Shown: positions 7,222-16,215, numbered from the stretch's first letter. The stretch is 16,215 bases of DNA from a virus (IMGVR_UViG_3300034107_000364); one strand, 5' to 3'. The notes: a model not told the origin generated them from the sequence alone. A program made the numbers and translations.

Positions 7222-8469
7222 ATGGAAGAAACCATATTTATTCAAATTGCAAGTTACAGAGATCCAGAGTTATTGAATACTCTTAAGGATTGTTTACTAA
7301 ACGCTGAATTTCCAGATCGTCTTAGATTTGGTATATGTTGGCAACATTCCGAAGAAGATACATGGGATACATTAGATCAATATAAAAACGATTCGCGATT
7401 TAGAATTTTAGATGTAAATTATAAAGATTCAACTGGAGCATGTTGGGCACGAAATAGCATTCAACAACTTTATCAAGGTGAAACTTATACATTTCAATTA
7501 GATAGTCATCATAGGTTTATTAGAAACTGGGACACTGAATTGATTAATATGCTAAGGGGTTTACAAGCTAAAGGTCATGCTAAACCATTACTTACAAGCT
7601 ATATTTCATCATATAATCCAGAAATCGATCCAAAGGGCAGAACTCAAGCACCATGGTTAATGAATTTTGATAGATTTACTCCAGAAGGTGTAATATTCTT
7701 TTTACCTGCTACAATTCCAGGATGGGAAAATATGACAGAACCAATTCCTTCAAGATTTTATTCAGCACACTTCGCATTTACAGTAGGTCAATTTGCAATA
7801 GAGGTACAACATGATCCAGAATTCTATTTTCATGGTGAAGAGATTACTATTGCAGTTAGAGCATTTACACACGGATATGATTTATTCCATCCACATAAAA
7901 TTATTGCGTGGCATGAATATACTCGTAAAGGTAGAACTAAACAATGGGATGATGATTCAGAATGGGGTAAGAGAAACACAAGAACTCATGAAAAAACTCG
8001 TAAACTATTAGGAATTGATGGAGAGTCATTTGATTCAGAAGAAGATATTTATGGTAAATATGGATTAGGTAGAGTTAGAACTATTGCAGATTGGGAAAGA
8101 TACGCAGGTATTAGACTTAGAGATCGTGCAGTACAACAATGGACCACATCTAATAAACTTGCACCTAATCCTCATGTAGAAGATTATGATAATAGTTTTC
8201 ATCATATATTCAAACACATTATAGATGTGCATAGATCTGTGCTTACTGAAACAGACTACACTTTTTGTGCAGTGATTATGGAATCAGAAGATGGTACTTC
8301 AGTTTATAGAAAGGATTTAAACGACCATGAGATTTCTCAGAAATTACAACAACCTGGTGATTGGATACACATTCATGTAGACTTGCAAGGACCAAAACCA
8401 TATAAGTGGATTGTTTGGCCACATAGCGCATCAAAAGGTTGGTGTACAAAAATAGAAAGAGTTTTATGA
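7222..8469 (+). CDS. GT60 / GlcNAc-transferase-like glycosyltransferase (Pfam GlcNAc-type) with C-terminal extension
   Basis: TIFIQIASYRD N-terminal strand, GACWAR, QLDSHHRF (DSH metal-binding motif), AHFAF and FYFHGEEI...RAFTHGYDLFHP...WHEY are characteristic of the Skp1/polypeptide alpha-GlcNAc-transferase family. Confidence 0.8.
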   Translation: MEETIFIQIASYRDPELLNTLKDCLLNAEFPDRLRFGICWQHSEEDTWDTLDQYKNDSRFRILDVNYKDSTGACWARNSIQQLYQGETYTFQLDSHHRFIRNWDTELINMLRGLQAKGHAKPLLTSYISSYNPEIDPKGRTQAPWLMNFDRFTPEGVIFFLPATIPGWENMTEPIPSRFYSAHFAFTVGQFAIEVQHDPEFYFHGEEITIAVRAFTHGYDLFHPHKIIAWHEYTRKGRTKQWDDDSEWGKRNTRTHEKTRKLLGIDGESFDSEEDIYGKYGLGRVRTIADWERYAGIRLRDRAVQQWTTSNKLAPNPHVEDYDNSFHHIFKHIIDVHRSVLTETDYTFCAVIMESEDGTSVYRKDLNDHEISQKLQQPGDWIHIHVDLQGPKPYKWIVWPHSASKGWCTKIERVL

Positions 8470-9071
8470 CAATAGAAGCAGTTGTTGCTAAATACAATGA
8501 AGATGTATCTTGGACAAAAAAACTTAAGTATAAAGTAACTATTTACAATAAAAATGCAGCAGATAATCATTTATTTGAAAGAAATCTGTTAAATTATGGT
8601 AAAGATGCGCATACACACCTACATCATATTGTAACAAATTGGTACAATTTAGCTGATTACACAATATTCTTACAAGGAAATCCATTCGAACATGATTGTG
8701 AAACTTGTGTAGAATTTATCAATGATTGTGATTTTACAAAACCATTTTATCCAATTGGACCAACTTATATCAGAGATAATGATGGTTGTATTAAGCAAGC
8801 TATTGATTACTGTGAAAAAATGGAAATTGAATATAAATTGCCATTTATGTTTATAGGTGGTATGCAATGTATTGTAAAGAAAGATCAAATTAAGAAAAGA
8901 TCATTAGATTTTTACGTAAAACTAATGGAAAGTATAGCAAAAAATATATCAACTTCTTCATTTTCTGGAGGAGCACATGGAAACGATCCACAAATATGGG
9001 CACTAGAGTATAGTTGGCCTACAATATTTGGTGTAAATGAAATGTTGACACATAAATTACATAATTGTTAA
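8466..9071 (+). CDS. DUF3431-like protein (probable glycosyltransferase-related), 201 aa
   Basis: VVAKYNEDVSW and NYGKDAHTHLHHIVTNWYNLADYTIFLQGNPFEH motifs. Start moved from 8439 to ATG 8466, which forms an ATGA overlap with the upstream TGA. Confidence 0.7.
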   Translation: MTIEAVVAKYNEDVSWTKKLKYKVTIYNKNAADNHLFERNLLNYGKDAHTHLHHIVTNWYNLADYTIFLQGNPFEHDCETCVEFINDCDFTKPFYPIGPTYIRDNDGCIKQAIDYCEKMEIEYKLPFMFIGGMQCIVKKDQIKKRSLDFYVKLMESIAKNISTSSFSGGAHGNDPQIWALEYSWPTIFGVNEMLTHKLHNC

Positions 9072-9072
9072 A

Positions 9073-9894
9073 ATGAAAAAAGTATTAACAGGAGTTAGCA
9101 ACAATGTAACCAATAATATCGATAAAATTAGGGTTTGGGCTAATAGTTTTAAAAAACATGTAAAAGACGGTGAAGTAGTACTTATTGGAGCTGATATGAA
9201 TGCTCAAGATAGAAATGTTTTAAATCTAAATGGAATTAAATTCCATGCTATTGAATCAGATCCAGGATTAACAATTAATGATAGTAGATTAATTCATACT
9301 GCAAATTGGATAGAGAATAGTCCTTATGATTTATTTATGGTAACCGATGTATTTGACGTTTGCTTTCAAGCAGATCCATTTGAAATGTTAGAACTAGACA
9401 AATATGATTTCTTTGCTGGATCAGAAGGTGTATTACATAATGAAGAGCCTTGGAATATGGATGTTATGAATAAAGCATTTCCAGAATATGTAGATTTTAT
9501 TAGACAATATGAGGTGGTTTGTAGTGGAGTAATGTGTGGTAAAAAAGATTCATTAGTAAAAACATTAAGAATGCAACAACACTTAGTAGATGGTTCATTA
9601 AAAGGCCATGATATAAGGGATCAAGCTGCATTTAATATTTTAATTTATAAGAACTTAATTGATAATTGTAAAATCTTTAAACCTAATGAAGGTTGGGTAG
9701 TTCACTGTTCATTATCAGGTCCTACGTTTCAACATATAGAATGGGGTTTAGGAAAAGCTATTGATAAAAAATATGGTTTACCTAAATTACAAGAAAATGT
9801 TTTGATTGACTCAAACAACATAGTGTACAAAATTGCACATCAATATAATAGAATTCCTGAATGGAATGAAAAAATAATTGAACAATATGTCTAA
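9073..9894 (+). CDS. Putative GT-A fold glycosyltransferase
   Basis: FMVTDVFDVCFQADPF (TDxxDV metal/nucleotide-sugar motif), VCSGVMCG, DQAAFN and HQYNR motifs typical of GT-A enzymes; lies inside a glycosylation cluster. Confidence 0.65.
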   Translation: MKKVLTGVSNNVTNNIDKIRVWANSFKKHVKDGEVVLIGADMNAQDRNVLNLNGIKFHAIESDPGLTINDSRLIHTANWIENSPYDLFMVTDVFDVCFQADPFEMLELDKYDFFAGSEGVLHNEEPWNMDVMNKAFPEYVDFIRQYEVVCSGVMCGKKDSLVKTLRMQQHLVDGSLKGHDIRDQAAFNILIYKNLIDNCKIFKPNEGWVVHCSLSGPTFQHIEWGLGKAIDKKYGLPKLQENVLIDSNNIVYKIAHQYNRIPEWNEKIIEQYV

Positions 9895-10612
9895 AACAAT
9901 AGTATGTACATGTGCTAATACATTTAAATCATATGAATCGTATTGGAAAACTGTAGATTTTGACTTTGAATTTTTATCTGATAGAGCACCTATTGGAATA
10001 GAATATGATGAACAAAAAGTAAGAGATCTTTTTAATTTTAGAAGTGATGTTAGTAAATTACATTGGTGGAATCAACAAGGTAATAGAAATATTATTTGGT
10101 TCTATGCACATCTTAGAATGGCATATTATTATATGCTTAATCCCAATGAAGATTGGTATTGGTTTATGGATGATGACTTAGTATGTGATAATTGGTCAGA
10201 ATTCTTTAAAGCATTTGAAAATAACAATACTGATTTTATTTCTTATTACATATTTAAGAACAAAGGAGTGACTAGTCAACCTAACATTCCCGAAATTGAT
10301 GCTAACACATACAGTAATACATTATGGTTTGATAGATTTCCAGGTGATGGTGACCAAATCAATAAAAATGGTGAATTATTTGGATCATTCTTTCCAATTG
10401 TTAGATTCTCAAATAAAAGTCTACGTCACATAACAGATTTATTACTAAATGGTGTACATGGATATTCTGAAGGATTTGTGCCAACTATATTAAATAAAGA
10501 CGGATTTACACTTGACACTATTTTTAATAATCAAAGTAGATCAAATCATTTTGATGTAGATAAGATACATATTAAACATAAGGGCATTAGAGTAGAGTGG
10601 TCTTGGATATAA
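9887..10612 (+). CDS. Putative GT-A fold glycosyltransferase, 241 aa
   Basis: YWFMDDDL (DxD after a hydrophobic strand), FFPIVRFS and HGYSEGFVPT. The track start at 9878 is TTG; ATG 9887 overlaps the upstream stop by 8 nt and is the more likely start. Confidence 0.6.
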   Translation: MSKTIVCTCANTFKSYESYWKTVDFDFEFLSDRAPIGIEYDEQKVRDLFNFRSDVSKLHWWNQQGNRNIIWFYAHLRMAYYYMLNPNEDWYWFMDDDLVCDNWSEFFKAFENNNTDFISYYIFKNKGVTSQPNIPEIDANTYSNTLWFDRFPGDGDQINKNGELFGSFFPIVRFSNKSLRHITDLLLNGVHGYSEGFVPTILNKDGFTLDTIFNNQSRSNHFDVDKIHIKHKGIRVEWSWI

Positions 10613-10625
10613 ATAAAATTTAGCA

Positions 10626-11402
10626 ATGAAACCATTAGTTATTACGGCACTTTATGATATTGGTAGATCTGAATGGAAAGATTTCGCACAATCATATCAC
10701 ACATATTTACATTGGATGCAAAGAGCACTTAGTCTTAGGGCTAATATGGTGGTTTTTACAGAATCTAAGTTCGAAGAAAGAATTAGACAGATGAGATCTG
10801 AAGTAGATCCAACTGGAGAAATGACCACATACGTAATAAACTCAATAGAAGATTTAGAAGCATACAAGACTTGGTTCACTAAAATAGATCAAGTTATGCA
10901 TGATGATGAATTTTTAAAGAAAAGACATTGGGATCATGTACCTGAAATGAATTATCCTTTATATAATATAGTAATGTTCAATAAGATCTTCTTTTTAAAT
11001 GAAGCACTTAAATTACATAAAGACGCAACTCATTTAATATGGGTAGATGCAGGTGGTATTAGAGAAGATATGGATTATCCAGAAACTTGGCCTAATATAG
11101 AAAAACTATCAATGGATACTATAATGCATTTTACACACAATTTAGATTTTGCAATACCAGATCCAGAATGGCACACTCTTTCACAACAAAGACATATACA
11201 AGGTGGAGCATTCGTTTGTCCAGCATGGAAAATAGATTGGTACATGAATGAGATAAATAAGACAATAGGTTTTTGCTTAGATAGGAATTTTATTGGAAGC
11301 GATGAAAAGATTTTTGATCTAACATATTTAAGAGATCCTAAACAATTTACATTAGTCAAGCATGGATGGAGAGAATATTACAGTTGGCTAGGAACTAAAT
11401 AA
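10626..11402 (+). CDS. HtrL/YibB-like protein (putative glycosyltransferase)
   Basis: LVITALYDIGRSEW...TYL...NMVVFT, YNIVMFNKIFF, WVDAG, IQGGAF and SDEKIF match the HtrL_YibB pattern as I recall it. Confidence 0.7.
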   Translation: MKPLVITALYDIGRSEWKDFAQSYHTYLHWMQRALSLRANMVVFTESKFEERIRQMRSEVDPTGEMTTYVINSIEDLEAYKTWFTKIDQVMHDDEFLKKRHWDHVPEMNYPLYNIVMFNKIFFLNEALKLHKDATHLIWVDAGGIREDMDYPETWPNIEKLSMDTIMHFTHNLDFAIPDPEWHTLSQQRHIQGGAFVCPAWKIDWYMNEINKTIGFCLDRNFIGSDEKIFDLTYLRDPKQFTLVKHGWREYYSWLGTK

Positions 11403-11409
11403 TTAAAAT

Positions 11410-12291
11410 ATGTATACATTAGTAACAGGAGGAGCAGGATTCATCGGAACACATCTTATTAAGTCATTGCTTACTGAGAAACCGCATACAAAAATAGTTT
11501 CACTAGATGATTATTCTACTGGCCTAAAATCTAATCATATTCAAGGTGTACAGTATATAGAAGGTAGAACTCAAGATGCTCTTCGATTACTAGAAAGATT
11601 TGAGATTGATAAAATCTACCACTTTGGAGAATATTCTCGTATACATCAATCATATCAAGAAATAGAAAAGGTGCAATCTTCATGTGTTGAAGGAACTAGT
11701 CAAATTATAAGATTAGCTATAAATCAAAATGCAATCCTAATTTATTCAGCATCTTCATCACATTTTGGACAAAAAGATCAAGATCTTTCACCATATAGTT
11801 GGTACAAAAAACAAAATGTAGATCTTATTAAAAAGCACCAAAAATGGAGCAATCTTAAATCACACATATTTTATTTCTTTAATGCATATGGACCTGGACA
11901 AATTACAGAAGGTGCATACGCAACTGTCTTAGGTATATGGGAAAATCAAATCAAGAATCAACAAGCAATAACTATCGTTGAACCTGGAACTCAAATAAGA
12001 ATCTTTACAAGAGTAGAATCAATTGCATTAGCATGTACTCGTCATGATCTTTTACCTATTAATGGTGAATGGGCGCTGCACTCTGAAGACAAAGTAACTC
12101 TACTACAAATAGTAAAAAAGCTTAAAAAGAAAACCAAATGGTTAGAAGCCAGAGATGGTGATAGATTAAAAGTACCTAAACTAACCATACCTAAACCACC
12201 ATATTGGGAACACCCTTATAGATTAGAAGATTGGATAGGTGATCTTAGAAGATGGACTCGTCCTGAAACAATAGAAGATTATGATATATAA
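11410..12291 (+). CDS. NAD-dependent nucleotide-sugar epimerase/dehydratase (extended SDR)
   Basis: LVTGGAGFIG Rossmann motif, LDDYSTG, catalytic Ser in YSASSS, YxxxK in PYSWYK, FFNAYGPGQ. Substrate not assignable. Confidence 0.9.
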   Translation: MYTLVTGGAGFIGTHLIKSLLTEKPHTKIVSLDDYSTGLKSNHIQGVQYIEGRTQDALRLLERFEIDKIYHFGEYSRIHQSYQEIEKVQSSCVEGTSQIIRLAINQNAILIYSASSSHFGQKDQDLSPYSWYKKQNVDLIKKHQKWSNLKSHIFYFFNAYGPGQITEGAYATVLGIWENQIKNQQAITIVEPGTQIRIFTRVESIALACTRHDLLPINGEWALHSEDKVTLLQIVKKLKKKTKWLEARDGDRLKVPKLTIPKPPYWEHPYRLEDWIGDLRRWTRPETIEDYDI

Positions 12292-12292
12292 T
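12283..12292 (+). promoter_or_regulatory. Candidate phage promoter motif GATATATAAT (second copy)
   Basis: Identical to 7187-7196. Overlaps the epimerase stop and lies 20 nt upstream of the first leader-bearing gene. Confidence 0.45.
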
Positions 12293-12312
12293 AAAATAAT
12301 ACAGACAATCAA

Positions 12313-12597
12313 ATGAAATATGCAAAACTATACGAAGATTTTATTAACGAGTCTAATGAAGATAAATTAATAAAATCATTTACTGATCAAACTGAAGTTA
12401 AGACATGGGATAAGGTTAAAGTTGAAGGTGAAAAAGGTATTTGGACTGTAGTTAGATTGTGGTCTTCAACTGAATCAGGTGGTATGAACAAAGGTTTATC
12501 TATAGAATTAACACAAGGAAATTCGAGAGAACATTTTACGGTGATGGATGATAACGGAGAATTAACACCAAATGGTAAAAACATAAAAAAGAAATAA
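12313..12597 (+). CDS. Hypothetical protein with capsid-targeting-like leader (MKYAKLYEDFINE), 94 aa
   Basis: Shared leader. The body has a short beta-rich segment (KVKVEGEKGIWTVVRL), possibly SH3/KOW-like. TAATG overlap with the next gene. Confidence 0.8.
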   Translation: MKYAKLYEDFINESNEDKLIKSFTDQTEVKTWDKVKVEGEKGIWTVVRLWSSTESGGMNKGLSIELTQGNSREHFTVMDDNGELTPNGKNIKKK

Positions 12598-13190
12598 TGA
12601 AGTACATAAAACTATACGAAGAATTTATTAATGAAGCTAAGATGGATATTTTCCCAGGATATAATAATGGGTTAGATGTTGATGAGTATCAAAAACAATT
12701 TAAGAAAGAGCTTTCTAAAGTAAAAGGCGTTGAATTTAACATGTCATCGACTTCAATGATATATCTTAGAACCGAGCCAAATATGGCAGATGTGGATCTA
12801 ACTAAAGATATTCAGAAAGCATTAAAAGGTTTTGATGATAATTTAGATTTAGATAAAATCACTAGTAATATTGGAAAACCTGGACAAATTAGTCCAAATG
12901 ACCAACAAAAAGGAATTGTTTCATACACTATTCCTAAGAAAGTTGATTGGTGGACACTTAAAAGAGCAGCGGGTCCAGAAAAACCTAGCACTGAAACTGT
13001 TTTAAATCCTGAAATAATTGATTCTATTCTAGACAGAATGGCTCAAGTTTCAACAACACAAGACCAATTAGCAAATACAATGTGGACTTCTTTAGAAGAT
13101 TTGCTTAGAGCAGCTGAAGATCACATGTCTGGTACAAACTACAAGAAATTCTATAAAGAAATTAAGAAAAAATACCCAAAAATGACATAA
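12597..13190 (+). CDS. Hypothetical protein with capsid-targeting-like leader (MKYIKLYEEFINE), 197 aa
   Basis: Shared leader; TAATG coupling on both sides; no recognisable domain. Confidence 0.85.
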   Translation: MKYIKLYEEFINEAKMDIFPGYNNGLDVDEYQKQFKKELSKVKGVEFNMSSTSMIYLRTEPNMADVDLTKDIQKALKGFDDNLDLDKITSNIGKPGQISPNDQQKGIVSYTIPKKVDWWTLKRAAGPEKPSTETVLNPEIIDSILDRMAQVSTTQDQLANTMWTSLEDLLRAAEDHMSGTNYKKFYKEIKKKYPKMT

Positions 13191-13507
13191 TGAAGTACGC
13201 AAAATTATATGAAGAATTCGTAAAAGAAGGAAAATCTCAAGAATGGATAGTATTCCTTCCTATTAAAAAAGAAAACATCATTGATATAGAAAGTGATCAA
13301 TTTGGAGTTTATACAGAACAAGAATATGATCAATATGCACCATTTGATGTATATAGTGGACCAGATTATACAACTTCACTTCCATTTCCAGACATGAAAA
13401 CAGCTAAAGAGTTCGCAGAACTTGTTAAAAAAGCAAAAGGCGATATGAAGTCTTCGGCATATGCTAAAGTAACTGAATTTGAAAGCAAGAATAAAATATC
13501 TAAATAG
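13190..13507 (+). CDS. Hypothetical protein with capsid-targeting-like leader (MKYAKLYEEFVKE), 105 aa
   Basis: Shared leader; ends in the only TAG stop among the credible genes. Confidence 0.8.
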   Translation: MKYAKLYEEFVKEGKSQEWIVFLPIKKENIIDIESDQFGVYTEQEYDQYAPFDVYSGPDYTTSLPFPDMKTAKEFAELVKKAKGDMKSSAYAKVTEFESKNKISK

Positions 13508-13510
13508 AAC

Positions 13511-14059
13511 ATGAAACACATTAAATTATTCGAACAATTCGTAAATGAAAAAGCATATCAAATGACAGGTATGTATGGTGCTAAAGGTATCGCTGGAAAA
13601 GTGTTATTTGCATTTAAAAAAGAGGTTGAAAAAATAAAATTTGAAGGAGACGTTCAAGATACTCTTAAAGAAATTAATCAAGTTTGGTCAAAATGGGCTG
13701 ATAAAGAAGGAGCTGAGATTATTGCTGACGAAGTTATGAAACAAGTCAAAGATAAAGAAGCTATTGTTTATATTATGGCTGCATTAAGCAAACAAGAATG
13801 GGTAGATGATCAAATTAATGGTCTTAATAGACCAGATGGTACAGAGTTATTCGTTAGAATTCCTAGTGATTTTGTAATTAACGTTGGATTTGCAGATGAT
13901 GTAGATGCTGGTAAATATGTAAGAAAACTAAGTGGAATGCAAAACGACGCATTAGTATCTGGAATTGAAACTATCATAGCAGGAGAATATATGTCGAGTG
14001 TTGGTCAAAACAACATAGAGATTAGACAAAGCCTATTCTTATCAATAGACGCAAAATAA
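13511..14059 (+). CDS. Hypothetical protein with capsid-targeting-like leader (MKHIKLFEQFVNE), 182 aa
   Basis: Shared leader; no recognisable domain. Confidence 0.85.
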   Translation: MKHIKLFEQFVNEKAYQMTGMYGAKGIAGKVLFAFKKEVEKIKFEGDVQDTLKEINQVWSKWADKEGAEIIADEVMKQVKDKEAIVYIMAALSKQEWVDDQINGLNRPDGTELFVRIPSDFVINVGFADDVDAGKYVRKLSGMQNDALVSGIETIIAGEYMSSVGQNNIEIRQSLFLSIDAK

Positions 14060-14069
14060 TAAAACAGAT

Positions 14070-14813
14070 ATGAAGAAGATTAAATTATTTGAACAATTCA
14101 TTAATGAAGGTGAAGTAAATCCTGAAGAAGTTGCATTAGTACAAGATTTCGAAAAAGCTTTATTATCAAACCTTTCAGATGTAGGTTACCAAAGAGGTGG
14201 TAAAGATTCTAAAACATATGACTACAGTAATGGATATGTGCAAATAACTAATTCATATGAGGCTCCTGATTGGTCATGGATTGACAAAAAACGAGCAAAG
14301 ATATTACAAGACTGTAATATAAGTCCAATGTATATTAAAGCTTCTTATACGTATTTTGAAGTTATTAGTAAAGCACAACCAAAACCAGGTAGAGCTAGTA
14401 TAGGTGTATCTGGACAAGATTACATAAATTATTACACAGCAATTGATGTATCAAATCCAAAGAAAGTTAATTTCGCTAAAGATATTAAAAATTGGATTAA
14501 ATCTACACAAAAAGAAGCTCTAACCAGCGATATGATCCAACGTATACTTGCATTTTGGAAAGCAGATAAAGCAGAGTATAAACAAATTGGATCAAGAGAT
14601 CAAGGTTACGGAAGTCAAGCATCAGTACACATCACAAAATCTTACGATAAAGCATACAAAATAAAAGATCTTAATATTGCATTAGGTTTATCAGAAGAAG
14701 AAACTGAATCTATTATTAAATTACATTACATGTTCAAAAAGGATCGTTTAGATTTTGATTGGCAACAAGGAGTAATGTTAGTAGGTGGTACATACACTGA
14801 AGTTTGGGACTAA
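14070..14813 (+). CDS. Hypothetical protein with capsid-targeting-like leader (MKKIKLFEQFINE), 247 aa
   Basis: Shared leader; TAAAA upstream; no recognisable domain. Confidence 0.85.
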   Translation: MKKIKLFEQFINEGEVNPEEVALVQDFEKALLSNLSDVGYQRGGKDSKTYDYSNGYVQITNSYEAPDWSWIDKKRAKILQDCNISPMYIKASYTYFEVISKAQPKPGRASIGVSGQDYINYYTAIDVSNPKKVNFAKDIKNWIKSTQKEALTSDMIQRILAFWKADKAEYKQIGSRDQGYGSQASVHITKSYDKAYKIKDLNIALGLSEEETESIIKLHYMFKKDRLDFDWQQGVMLVGGTYTEVWD

Positions 14814-14848
14814 TTAAATAAAAACAAAAATAAAAACAAAATACAAAC

Positions 14849-15535
14849 ATGAAACATATTAAACTATTTGAACAATTTATTGGTGAGGCTAGTAATGACA
14901 AAAAAATCAAAGATCTTCAAAATGATCTAACTGAACTTGATGATAGAATGGAAGAAATTCAGTCTGCTGTAGAAAAAGGAGACATGGATGAAGATGAAGC
15001 TGAGCTTCAATTATCAGACTTGGATGCACAGAAAGTTGAAATGGAAGGTGAATTAGCAGAACTACAAGGTGGAGCTGATGCCAAAGAGGAATATGGTCAA
15101 CTTGCTAAATTTATAAACAAATATAACACGCTCATAAATAGTAGACAATCTTTTAGATGGTCTTATATGAAAAACAATTGTCCAGCTGAAGAAGAAAGAA
15201 TGATGGACGGTCTTGCTAAAAGAGACAAAGCTATCGAAGATGAAAATGAAGTTAATGCAAAAAAACTTGAAGATAAAATGCAAAAAATAAGCAAAGATTT
15301 TTCTGCAGAAACTAAAGCTTGGCTTTCATATTACATTACTGAGTACAAAAATGCTGGGGCAGCATTTAGTGAAGCAGCACATTCTTTAACAGGAGCACAA
15401 TATTCTTGTAGTGATTATAAGATTGGTTGTGATAATGTTAAAGAAAAAAAAGAGGTCTATAAAAAAACAGAAAAAGGACAAAAAGAAGCTGAAGCAAAAC
15501 TTAAAGAATTGCAGAATGCAATGTTAGATAAATAA
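14849..15535 (+). CDS. Hypothetical helical/coiled-coil protein with capsid-targeting-like leader (MKHIKLFEQFIGE), 228 aa
   Basis: Shared leader; acidic heptad-like segment (IKDLQNDLTELDDRMEEIQ...LAELQ) and a Lys/Glu-rich C-terminus. Confidence 0.85.
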   Translation: MKHIKLFEQFIGEASNDKKIKDLQNDLTELDDRMEEIQSAVEKGDMDEDEAELQLSDLDAQKVEMEGELAELQGGADAKEEYGQLAKFINKYNTLINSRQSFRWSYMKNNCPAEEERMMDGLAKRDKAIEDENEVNAKKLEDKMQKISKDFSAETKAWLSYYITEYKNAGAAFSEAAHSLTGAQYSCSDYKIGCDNVKEKKEVYKKTEKGQKEAEAKLKELQNAMLDK

Positions 15536-15552
15536 AATAAAATAAAAATAAA
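15529..15552 (+). promoter_or_regulatory. A-rich TAAAA tandem translation-initiation region (representative of most intergenic gaps)
   Basis: TAAA TAAAA TAAAA TAAAAA TAAA directly before ATG 15553. Similar tracts precede 500, 4398 and 14849. No AGGAG-type site was seen before these starts. Confidence 0.5.
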
Positions 15553-16215
15553 ATGGCAAAAGTATATTACGTAGCAGAAAATGCACCTGATTATTCTCAA
15601 GTAAATTTCTATAAAACAGAAAAAGAGGCTCTAAAATTTGGACTCTCACAAATACCTAACTTCGAAATGGGTGAAGAACCAATGAATGACGAAGAAAATG
15701 ATGGTGAAGAATGGTTCCATGGAGCTGAATTAACATTTGATAAAGGAATCTTATACATAGTATACAATGGTGATGTTACAGTTGAAGCCATCGATGAAGA
15801 TGCTGCAAGAGAAAAAGCTCAAGAGCTTGAAGACAATGGAGTTGCTATATTCTTTGATGGATTTACAAAAGGAATGTATGGTTATCAAGGTACAGCTGCT
15901 GATGGTAAAGGTTACAAATGGGACTGGGATGGATACGATATTAATGAATCAAACACATCGAGTACCAAACACGGAATGAAACACATTAAACTATTCGAAC
16001 AATTTTCTAAAACATTAAACGAAAAGAAAAAATGGTCTGATATTGACTCTTATAATATTGGAGATGAATTTATGGATGAATTTCCAAAAAACAAAGACTG
16101 GAAAGATAGTATGTGGTCTTCATTAGAAGATTGGATGGATCAAGAATGGGGACCTAATGCTGGTGTTGAATCTTCTAAAGGATTTGAAGATGCACTTAAC
16201 GATGTTACAGACTAT
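15553..16215 (+). CDS. 3'-truncated acidic hypothetical protein (at least 221 aa) with an internal leader-like peptide; missing from the ORF track
   Basis: ATG at 15553 after a TAAAA tandem. My translation is open to the window end: MAKVYYVAENAPDYSQ...DGYDINESNTSSTKHG-MKHIKLFEQFSKTLNE-KKKWSD...VTDY. Codon usage and composition are like the neighbouring genes. Confidence 0.85.
   Translation, partial: MAKVYYVAENAPDYSQVNFYKTEKEALKFGLSQIPNFEMGEEPMNDEENDGEEWFHGAELTFDKGILYIVYNGDVTVEAIDEDAAREKAQELEDNGVAIFFDGFTKGMYGYQGTAADGKGYKWDWDGYDINESNTSSTKHGMKHIKLFEQFSKTLNEKKKWSDIDSYNIGDEFMDEFPKNKDWKDSMWSSLEDWMDQEWGPNAGVESSKGFEDALNDVTDY

Follow-up and report, generated by a model that had tools for sequence, protein, structure and literature searches.

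A candidate capsid-targeting leader on an array of unrelated proteins in an uncultured phage

Introduction

Why do six neighbouring phage genes begin with the same short peptide when the proteins behind it are unrelated? The question is raised by a gene array in the last 3.9 kb of a stretch of viral DNA of 16,215 nucleotides (nt), IMGVR_UViG_3300034107_000364, which is referred to in its whole length as the window. The common N-terminal peptide is called the leader, and the remainder of each protein is its body. A preliminary description of the window took the leader for a modular address tag that resembles one used by phage T4. The T4 internal proteins reach the scaffolding core via a capsid-targeting sequence (CTS), and the prohead protease gp21 removes the CTS after a glutamate (PMC3012670, PMC5694885). 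The most likely mechanism for the array is a T4-type capsid-targeting leader, removed by a protease, on a hyperplastic set of cargo proteins. The comparative sequence evidence makes this probable, well short of certain.

A common leader on six genes

The listing of open reading frames (ORFs) gives six consecutive, tightly packed ORFs on the plus strand at 12313-15535 (t1 to t6, Table 1). All six N-termini fit the 13-residue consensus MK[YHK][AI]KL[YF]E[EQD]F[IV]xE, and residues 11-13 read INE, INE, VKE, VNE, INE, and IGE in gene order. A degenerate DNA pattern for K-L-[FY]-E-x-F-[IV]-x-E has six matches, versus none in 200 shuffles. The listing and the pattern scan bear out the preliminary description, which had reported six genes with a shared start and a seventh (t7) with the peptide inside.

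DNA identity among the six window leaders is 75%, compared with 34% in the next 39 nt and 42% in the upstream 39 nt. Leader codon pairs differ synonymously (48 of 195), which means that the peptide and not the DNA is conserved, as had been proposed. The six proteins are 94 to 247 amino acids (aa) long. Pairwise comparison of their bodies, with the leader removed, finds no significant similarity (best BLASTP E 0.054), so the earlier statement that they are otherwise dissimilar also holds.

The window is 100% identical to part of the European Nucleotide Archive (ENA) contig ERZ27272104 k141_203066 (260,917 bp). It is found in many lake-water metagenomes, and 14 runs hold at least 70% of the sampled words. 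A DNA search of GenBank phages with the window gives no match, and the exact start of t1 has no occurrence in IMG/VR or JGI metagenome contigs.

Distribution of the leader and its sharp boundary

The back-translated pattern of MKHIKLFEQF is present in more than 120 IMG/VR stretches, as a lower bound, versus a single one in the bacterial and archaeal genomes searched (596 Gb). The scan of relatives for the tag thus recovers the leader, mostly at ORF starts. The start-independent core K[LIM][FY]ExF[ILVM]xE lies at the ORF start in 152 of its 161 occurrences. A total of 167 distinct leader-bearing ORFs of 50-371 aa were collected from the fetched IMG/VR loci, and leader positions 11-13 were left out of the search pattern. 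These positions are nevertheless [ILVM]xE in 132 of the 167 leaders (79%), versus 1.7% at random body positions. Conservation vanishes from residue 14 on, and at every leader position the choice among synonymous codons is free. A set of 175 bodies falls into 98 BLAST clusters. Internal [ILV]xE sites occur at 0.95 times the composition expectation in bodies versus 1.21 times in untagged ORFs, which are a crude control; their rarity lends weak backing to a cleavable leader.

Leader ORFs number 20 in a 234 kb contig (G006), 13 in a record of 246 kb, and 33 in one of 482 kb, while a reversed control pattern gives none. In GenBank, the phages closest by capsid protein are an uncultured phage of 462 kb (52%) and the Lak phages (38%); neither has leaders, and the leader sequence is therefore clade-specific. 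Among the literature matches listed, none contained the leader strings KLFEQF, KLFEEF, KLYEEF, or MKHIKLF; all of them came from the unrelated string 'iklfe'. The sole match in the bacterial collection (L192, SKFV01000236.1) is a 3.8 kb contig in a metagenome-assembled genome labelled Pseudomonas sp. It has a 157 aa ORF starting MKHIKLFEQFVEG, and is probably a phage fragment binned into that genome.

The boundary is equally sharp within single families. In an alignment of 31 t5 orthologues, E13 is invariant, and N12 and G14 are nearly so. The leaders of this family take the forms MKKIKLFEQF, MKNIPTFEDF, and MKYVKTFESF, are shortened, or have a doubled site (FVNESSLNE/GT), and the conserved body begins directly after Glu13 whatever the form. 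The AlphaFold model of t5 has a predicted local distance difference test (pLDDT) score of 86, with residues 1-12 below 50 (disordered) and the fold starting from about residue 15. In the t2 family M1, F10, and E13 are invariant. The t5 junction and its predicted disordered leader are the behaviour that would be expected of a removable leader.

Head genes in leader-bearing relatives

The head genes described here are those of relatives of the window phage and not of its own 260,917 bp contig. Of 47 leader-bearing records, 24 have a match to the T4 gp21 protease family (PF03420) above the curated cut-off. The frequency among fragments agrees with a single copy per genome, for which about 16 would be expected given fragment completeness. 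It is present in all five carrier records that CheckV rates as at least 75% complete. The gp23 family (PF07068) was found in five of the five large records tested. The leader is restricted to this clade, which encodes both gp21-type and gp23-type proteins. The leader-bearing records look like fragments of genomes of about 250-300 kb, plus one complete record of 482 kb.

In G006 the orthologues of t2 (78%) and t4 (53%) follow the gene order of the window. Its head module consists of a portal, a 116 aa acidic protein starting MKIIKTFEEFTSSLQE that counts among the 20 leader ORFs, a 640 aa protease protein, and a capsid protein. The protease protein (L176:10399-12321, minus strand) comprises a gp21-like N-terminal domain and then an acidic coiled-coil. 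It looks like a gp21-gp22 (protease-scaffold) fusion, because the region after the protease is full of [ILV]xE sites. In an alignment with the structure of T4 gp21 (5JBL), the protease domain retains His at the DHP and Ser at the SSR position; these residues are the gp21 catalytic pair. The protein has 4,449 metagenome homologues at E ≤ 1e-20, many of them source-labelled 'methyl-accepting chemotaxis protein', a number that shows the lineage to be abundant. When the protease domain of G006 (residues 1-200) was modelled in complex with the N-terminal 40 residues of the t2 orthologue, the score was 0.00, which is uninformative on binding.

The capsid protein of the relatives is 23% identical to T4 gp23 and contains the conserved candidate [IL]xE sites LINE (residues 4-7) and KLYE (residues 40-43). 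Its start, MANLINE/AEI, was considered as the matching cleavage site. The region that follows aligns with the start of the T4 propeptide, and the site is retained as a candidate only. The head protease to which the preliminary description had pointed is thus present in relatives, together with a scaffold-like region, and of the x-x-E sites that it expected in head proteins, those of the capsid protein are candidates.

Two further proteins of G006 carry related motifs. A 760 aa protein beside the t2 orthologue (L076:5676-7958, minus strand) has repeated ESVVNE-like junctions, and a 258 aa DUF3008 protein (L076:3319-4095, minus strand) has an internal FKSFEQFINE.

Gain and loss of cassettes

Whole cassettes are gained and lost among close relatives, with breakpoints at or near the leaders. 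The locus L180, which has 92% DNA identity to the window, contains two extra tagged genes (175 and 246 aa) and lacks t6, and its DNA homology to the window breaks within about 30 nt of leader starts. Both t3 and t6 are absent from L181. L194 has one tagged gene of 155 aa instead of t1-t3, two more after t7, and no t6. In L076, which is part of G006, another tagged gene sits at the t3 position. One lake metagenome contig lacks exactly t1 (joint 12308 to 12596, side 255), and a lake contig lacks t3 (joint 13177 to 13511). Weaker leader-to-leader joints were also detected: contigs join the t6 leader to the t7 leader (14879 to 15976, with a short side of 21), and lake contigs have a joint from 12318 to 14079.

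The glycosyltransferase gene ahead of the array (window 7222-12291) was considered as a lineage marker. Its relatives, at 49-63% identity, occur in 39 IMG/VR contigs (L132-L170) with no leaders within 10 kb. The gene therefore does not trace the leader lineage, and it was ruled out as a marker. L132 and L147 have several glycosylation-cassette genes in common; with the leaderless relatives, this suggests that the glycosylation cassette moves between phage lineages.

Organisation of the array

The coordinates of the array genes are collected in Table 1. The start of t2 overlaps the stop of t1 (TAATG). A Shine-Dalgarno sequence is not visible upstream of the six leader genes, and the 25 nt before the starts are A-rich (12288-12312, 13486-13510, 14045-14069, and 14824-14848). 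The G+C content is 30-33% in this part of the window and, with the A-rich upstream regions and the lack of a Shine-Dalgarno sequence, would fit a Bacteroidota-type host. Promoter and terminator scans gave nothing above shuffled expectation.

Table 1. Genes of the leader array; positions are counted from the first nucleotide of the window, and body starts are predicted.
Gene	Position	Strand	Length	Leader	Leader position	Predicted body start	Remarks
t1	12313-12597	+	94 aa	MKYAKLYEDFINE	12313-12351	SNEDK	predicted cut after Glu13; body isoelectric point (pI) 6.5
t2	12597-13190	+	197 aa	MKYIKLYEEFINE	12597-12635	AKMDI	
t3	13190-13507	+	105 aa	MKYAKLYEEFVKE	13190-13228	GKSQE	
t4	13511-14059	+	182 aa	MKHIKLFEQFVNE	13511-13549	KAYQM	
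t5	14070-14813	+	247 aa	MKKIKLFEQFINE	14070-14108	GEVNP	
t6	14849-15535	+	228 aa	MKHIKLFEQFIGE	14849-14887	ASNDK	acidic body, pI 4.7
t7	15553-16215	+		MKHIKLFEQFSKTLNE	15976-16023		open at window end; leader internal, residues 142-157

The last gene, t7, differs in layout. In the source contig it is 229 aa long and closes the array. It comprises an untagged acidic N-terminal part (residues 1-141, pI 4.2), the internal leader, and a C-terminal body, with no stop codon between the acidic domain and the tagged body. An I-N-E site lies ahead of the internal leader at 15940-15948. The C-terminal body occurs alone, beginning at the leader, in L094 (6186-6465), and in L180 (12033-12506) the t7 frame ends just past the leader. 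The gene is either a fusion or polyprotein or two translation units, and it may be a polyprotein or the product of leader-to-leader recombination.

Families and models of the bodies

Each of the bodies has a family of its own. There are 74 homologues of t2, all unnamed and without Pfam assignment, and 33 of t5. The t4 orthologues (44-55% identity) occur in eight IMG/VR loci, with two further partial matches, and are tagged wherever the N-terminus is present. A Pfam search of the array proteins gave no matches. The single hint from the PHROG families is a match of t2 to phrog_2667, 'internal head protein', at E 0.015. Apart from this match the bodies have no sequence homology to T4-like internal head proteins, and since the tag is portable, such homology is not expected.

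The structure searches proposed in the preliminary description were run with the models of t2 (pLDDT 81) and t5, and neither gave a convincing match. For t2, Foldseek against the PDB found no fold match (best template modelling (TM) score 0.17, at the top-ranked match). For t5, the best values are a TM score of 0.16 with Foldseek against the PDB, a Z score of 6.4 with VIA-align, which is within noise, and a TM score of 0.40 in the ESM Atlas. An Atlas feature search with t4 returned nothing.

Recognisable tagged enzymes are encoded in related contigs. They include a 2H phosphoesterase, cytidylyltransferases, and an ATP-grasp protein, all with cellular relatives. These tagged proteins have ordinary enzyme folds, and the leader was therefore attached to pre-existing domains. 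The 2H phosphoesterase is a 185 aa protein tagged MRTIKLFEDFIME (L066:773-1330, minus strand) on a 119 kb IMG/VR contig that also carries a gp21-type protease. It has both H-x-T motifs and scores 32.9 bits on PF13563 (2H; cut-off 27). On the Acb1 family, which counters cyclic oligonucleotide-based antiphage signalling (CBASS), it scores 22.7 bits, below the cut-off of 27. A packaged cyclic-nucleotide-degrading enzyme is a possible identity for this protein.

Some RNA libraries contain the array. In an estuary metatranscriptome run one contig of 1,705 nt spans t4 and t5 (13511-14808) at about 98% identity, and parts of t5 and t7 are represented in a freshwater metatranscriptome. Both finds hint at transcription, and DNA carry-over in the libraries is possible. 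RNA runs with small word shares were not used for habitat or expression.

Proposed mechanism and its alternatives

In the proposed mechanism the 13-residue leader would be a T4-type capsid-targeting propeptide. As the prohead assembles, it would steer each protein into the scaffolding core, where a gp21-family prohead protease would cut after the last Glu of [IV]-x-E. The mature body would stay in the head, and at least some bodies would exit with the DNA at infection. Recombination at the conserved leader, or close to it, would exchange the cassettes of the array. Core binding, cleavage, virion retention, ejection, and any host role are steps that we infer by comparison with T4, and delivery to the host and anti-defence roles of the bodies are plausible by the same analogy. 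The modular tag of the preliminary description is supported in its cleavable leader, for which the boundary, the invariant Glu, the clade restriction, and the cassette swaps all speak. The bodies lack Pfam or convincing fold matches and have pI values unlike those of the T4 internal proteins.

Several points weigh against this mechanism. The resemblance of the leader to the T4 CTS, described earlier as close, does extend to a common [FY]-x-E-F-[IV]-x-E. This is a handful of residues, a weak likeness alone, and it is weighted here by its context. The gp21-type protease was seen in relatives, and among the 120 homologues listed for the G006 protease none lies on a contig of 260,917 bp, the length of the source contig, or of 188,052 bp. 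In the alignment with T4 gp23, the capsid protein of the relatives does not preserve the T4 cleavage position. The window bodies have pI values of 4.1-6.9, versus 9.0-9.7 in the T4 internal proteins; elsewhere, the pI is above 8 in 35% of 167 bodies. The family phrog_2667 is not among the 25 families most frequently matched by 70 other tagged proteins. A place in the core, and not among the delivered cargo, is possible for the t6 protein and for the N-terminal part of t7. The exact cut is uncertain because a second stretch of the leader, L-[FY]-E, fits the motif as well. Virion presence and leader loss are, finally, inferred purely from sequence.

The acidity of t6 and of the N-terminal part of t7 (pI 4.7 and 4.2) is like that of the T4 core proteins gp67 and gp68, and in G006 a small acidic leader-like protein lies between the portal and the protease. 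Both would fit a leader that targets the prohead core on bodies that are assembly parts, degraded or expelled before DNA packaging and never delivered. This fate is unlikely for the array as a whole. The t2 and t5 proteins are modelled as compact globular domains, and for a tagged 2H phosphoesterase and cytidylyltransferase a role in scaffolding is not obvious. Near-identical phages differ in the cassettes that they carry, a misfit for essential assembly parts, and internal [ILV]xE sites are not enriched in the bodies, unlike in the scaffold. It is quite improbable that the leader has nothing to do with the capsid and acts as an expression or turnover signal, either tuning translation initiation on messenger RNAs without a Shine-Dalgarno sequence or serving as a timing degron. 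The A-rich regions and the lack of a visible Shine-Dalgarno sequence before the six starts would suit such a signal, as would the placement of the leader at the very start of the ORF (152/161). However, it is the peptide that is conserved, synonymous changes being free, and the terminal [ILV]xE and the sharp boundary would be left unexplained. Most genes of the same genomes are also leaderless (G006, of 234 kb, has 20 leader ORFs), and cellular genomes have a single match in 596 Gb.

A short common N-terminal peptide on unrelated proteins is a general hallmark of sorting signals, and the destination could in principle be a membrane, secretion, the tail or baseplate, or an intracellular phage compartment. 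This is a shade less probable again: the leader is charged, without a hydrophobic stretch or a lipobox Cys, and it terminates in a head-protease motif. With one match in 596 Gb of bacterial genomes it is therefore not a host-type signal. The genes are tandem, co-oriented, and small, as would be fast-diverging paralogues of one family in which the N-terminus alone is still recognisable, yet this origin is very improbable. There is no pairwise similarity past the leader, lengths range from 94 to 247 aa, and the t2 and t5 models differ in secondary-structure layout. Each body has its own well-conserved orthologue family (47-98% identity), and tagged bodies elsewhere include members of unrelated Pfam families. 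Full-length paralogy within one family is rejected, the bodies being dissimilar beyond the leader.

Significance

Provided that the leader has the function known from T4, its presence singles out proteins packed in the capsids of a large and uncultured lineage of phages. Proteins that enter with the DNA can act ahead of any phage gene expression, and on the same condition the tagged set is therefore a focused candidate list for counter-defence and host takeover. Most of the tagged proteins are without known family or fold, and a few are recognisable enzymes.

A wider claim falls a little short of an even chance. In it the leader would be a portable, sequence-readable address, and the packaged, probably injected repertoire of an abundant jumbo-phage clade of lakes, estuaries, and the sea could be listed from DNA. 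Each genome would contribute 13-33 such proteins, and the small sample studied here would contain at least 93 body families. The arrays would evolve as cassette arrays, with effectors of host takeover or anti-defence recruited by gaining a 39-nt leader. The locus can be regarded as a natural case of cassette exchange guided by a tag.

The principle is already established for T-even phages. Their internal proteins are presented as a diverse set with only the CTS conserved in the account of PMC3012670, which cites Repoila 1994 for it. The novelty implied by the preliminary description is lower than stated, since this sharing of the CTS alone has been described (PMC3012670). New here are the clade-wide link to the protease, the independent statistic for the [ILV]xE boundary, the junction that is invariant across leader types, the population-level turnover of cassettes, and the assignment of the window to its source contig and to lake water.

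Comparison with known systems

The giant phages phiKZ, 201phi2-1, and SPN3US resemble the present clade, as it is interpreted here, in having many head-internal proteins that are cut after Glu by a gp21-related protease, and their propeptides are thought to be prohead-targeting (PMC5694885). Those propeptides are long and non-uniform, mostly more than 100 residues, and are cut at A/S/G-x-E (PMC5694885). The leader here is unlike them, being a short, near-invariant tag of 13 aa that ends in [ILV]xE, and the array does not belong to the long-propeptide type.

Among single enzymes, the tagged protein of L066, which lies outside the window, is like T4 Acb1 (gene 57B) and other 2H phosphoesterases in its H-x-T motifs; its activity is predicted. 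The T4 Acb1 sequence, unlike it, carries no such leader. T4 Acb1 is not known to be packaged.

The T4 internal proteins are the closest known system. In the T4 record internal proteins II and III (IPII and IPIII) start MKTYQEFIAE, exactly as the preliminary description had given it, followed by A, and IPI starts MKTFKEFTSTTTPVSTITE followed by A. That the cuts lie after these leaders is taken from the literature and the preliminary description. The CTS has been used to package foreign proteins (PMC3012670, PMC5694885), and the processed internal protein IPI* is an inhibitor of GmrSD (PMC3012670).

The present array differs from T4 in several respects. The leader here has 13 residues, MKHIKLFEQF[IV]NE, versus 10-19 residues starting MKT[YF]xEF in T4, and there are 13-33 leader genes per genome versus about four. 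The bodies of the window are acidic to neutral, and the T4 internal proteins are basic. In the relatives the protease forms the N-terminal domain of a larger protein (about 640 aa), which includes a coiled-coil, scaffold-like region. Compared with the T4 CTS system, the array is known from its sequence alone.

The likeness to T4 lies in the arrangement as a whole. As in IPI-III and Alt, a short N-terminal leader ending in [LIV]-x-E, the gp21 motif, is found on unrelated small proteins. The leader and the T4 CTS have a pattern in common, which consists of MK, a short spacer, [FY]-x-E-F, and then [ILV]-x-E. The carrier phages related to the window encode a gp21-family protease and a gp23-family capsid protein, as T4 does, and the content of the locus differs between close relatives, as in the internal-protein loci of the T-even phages.

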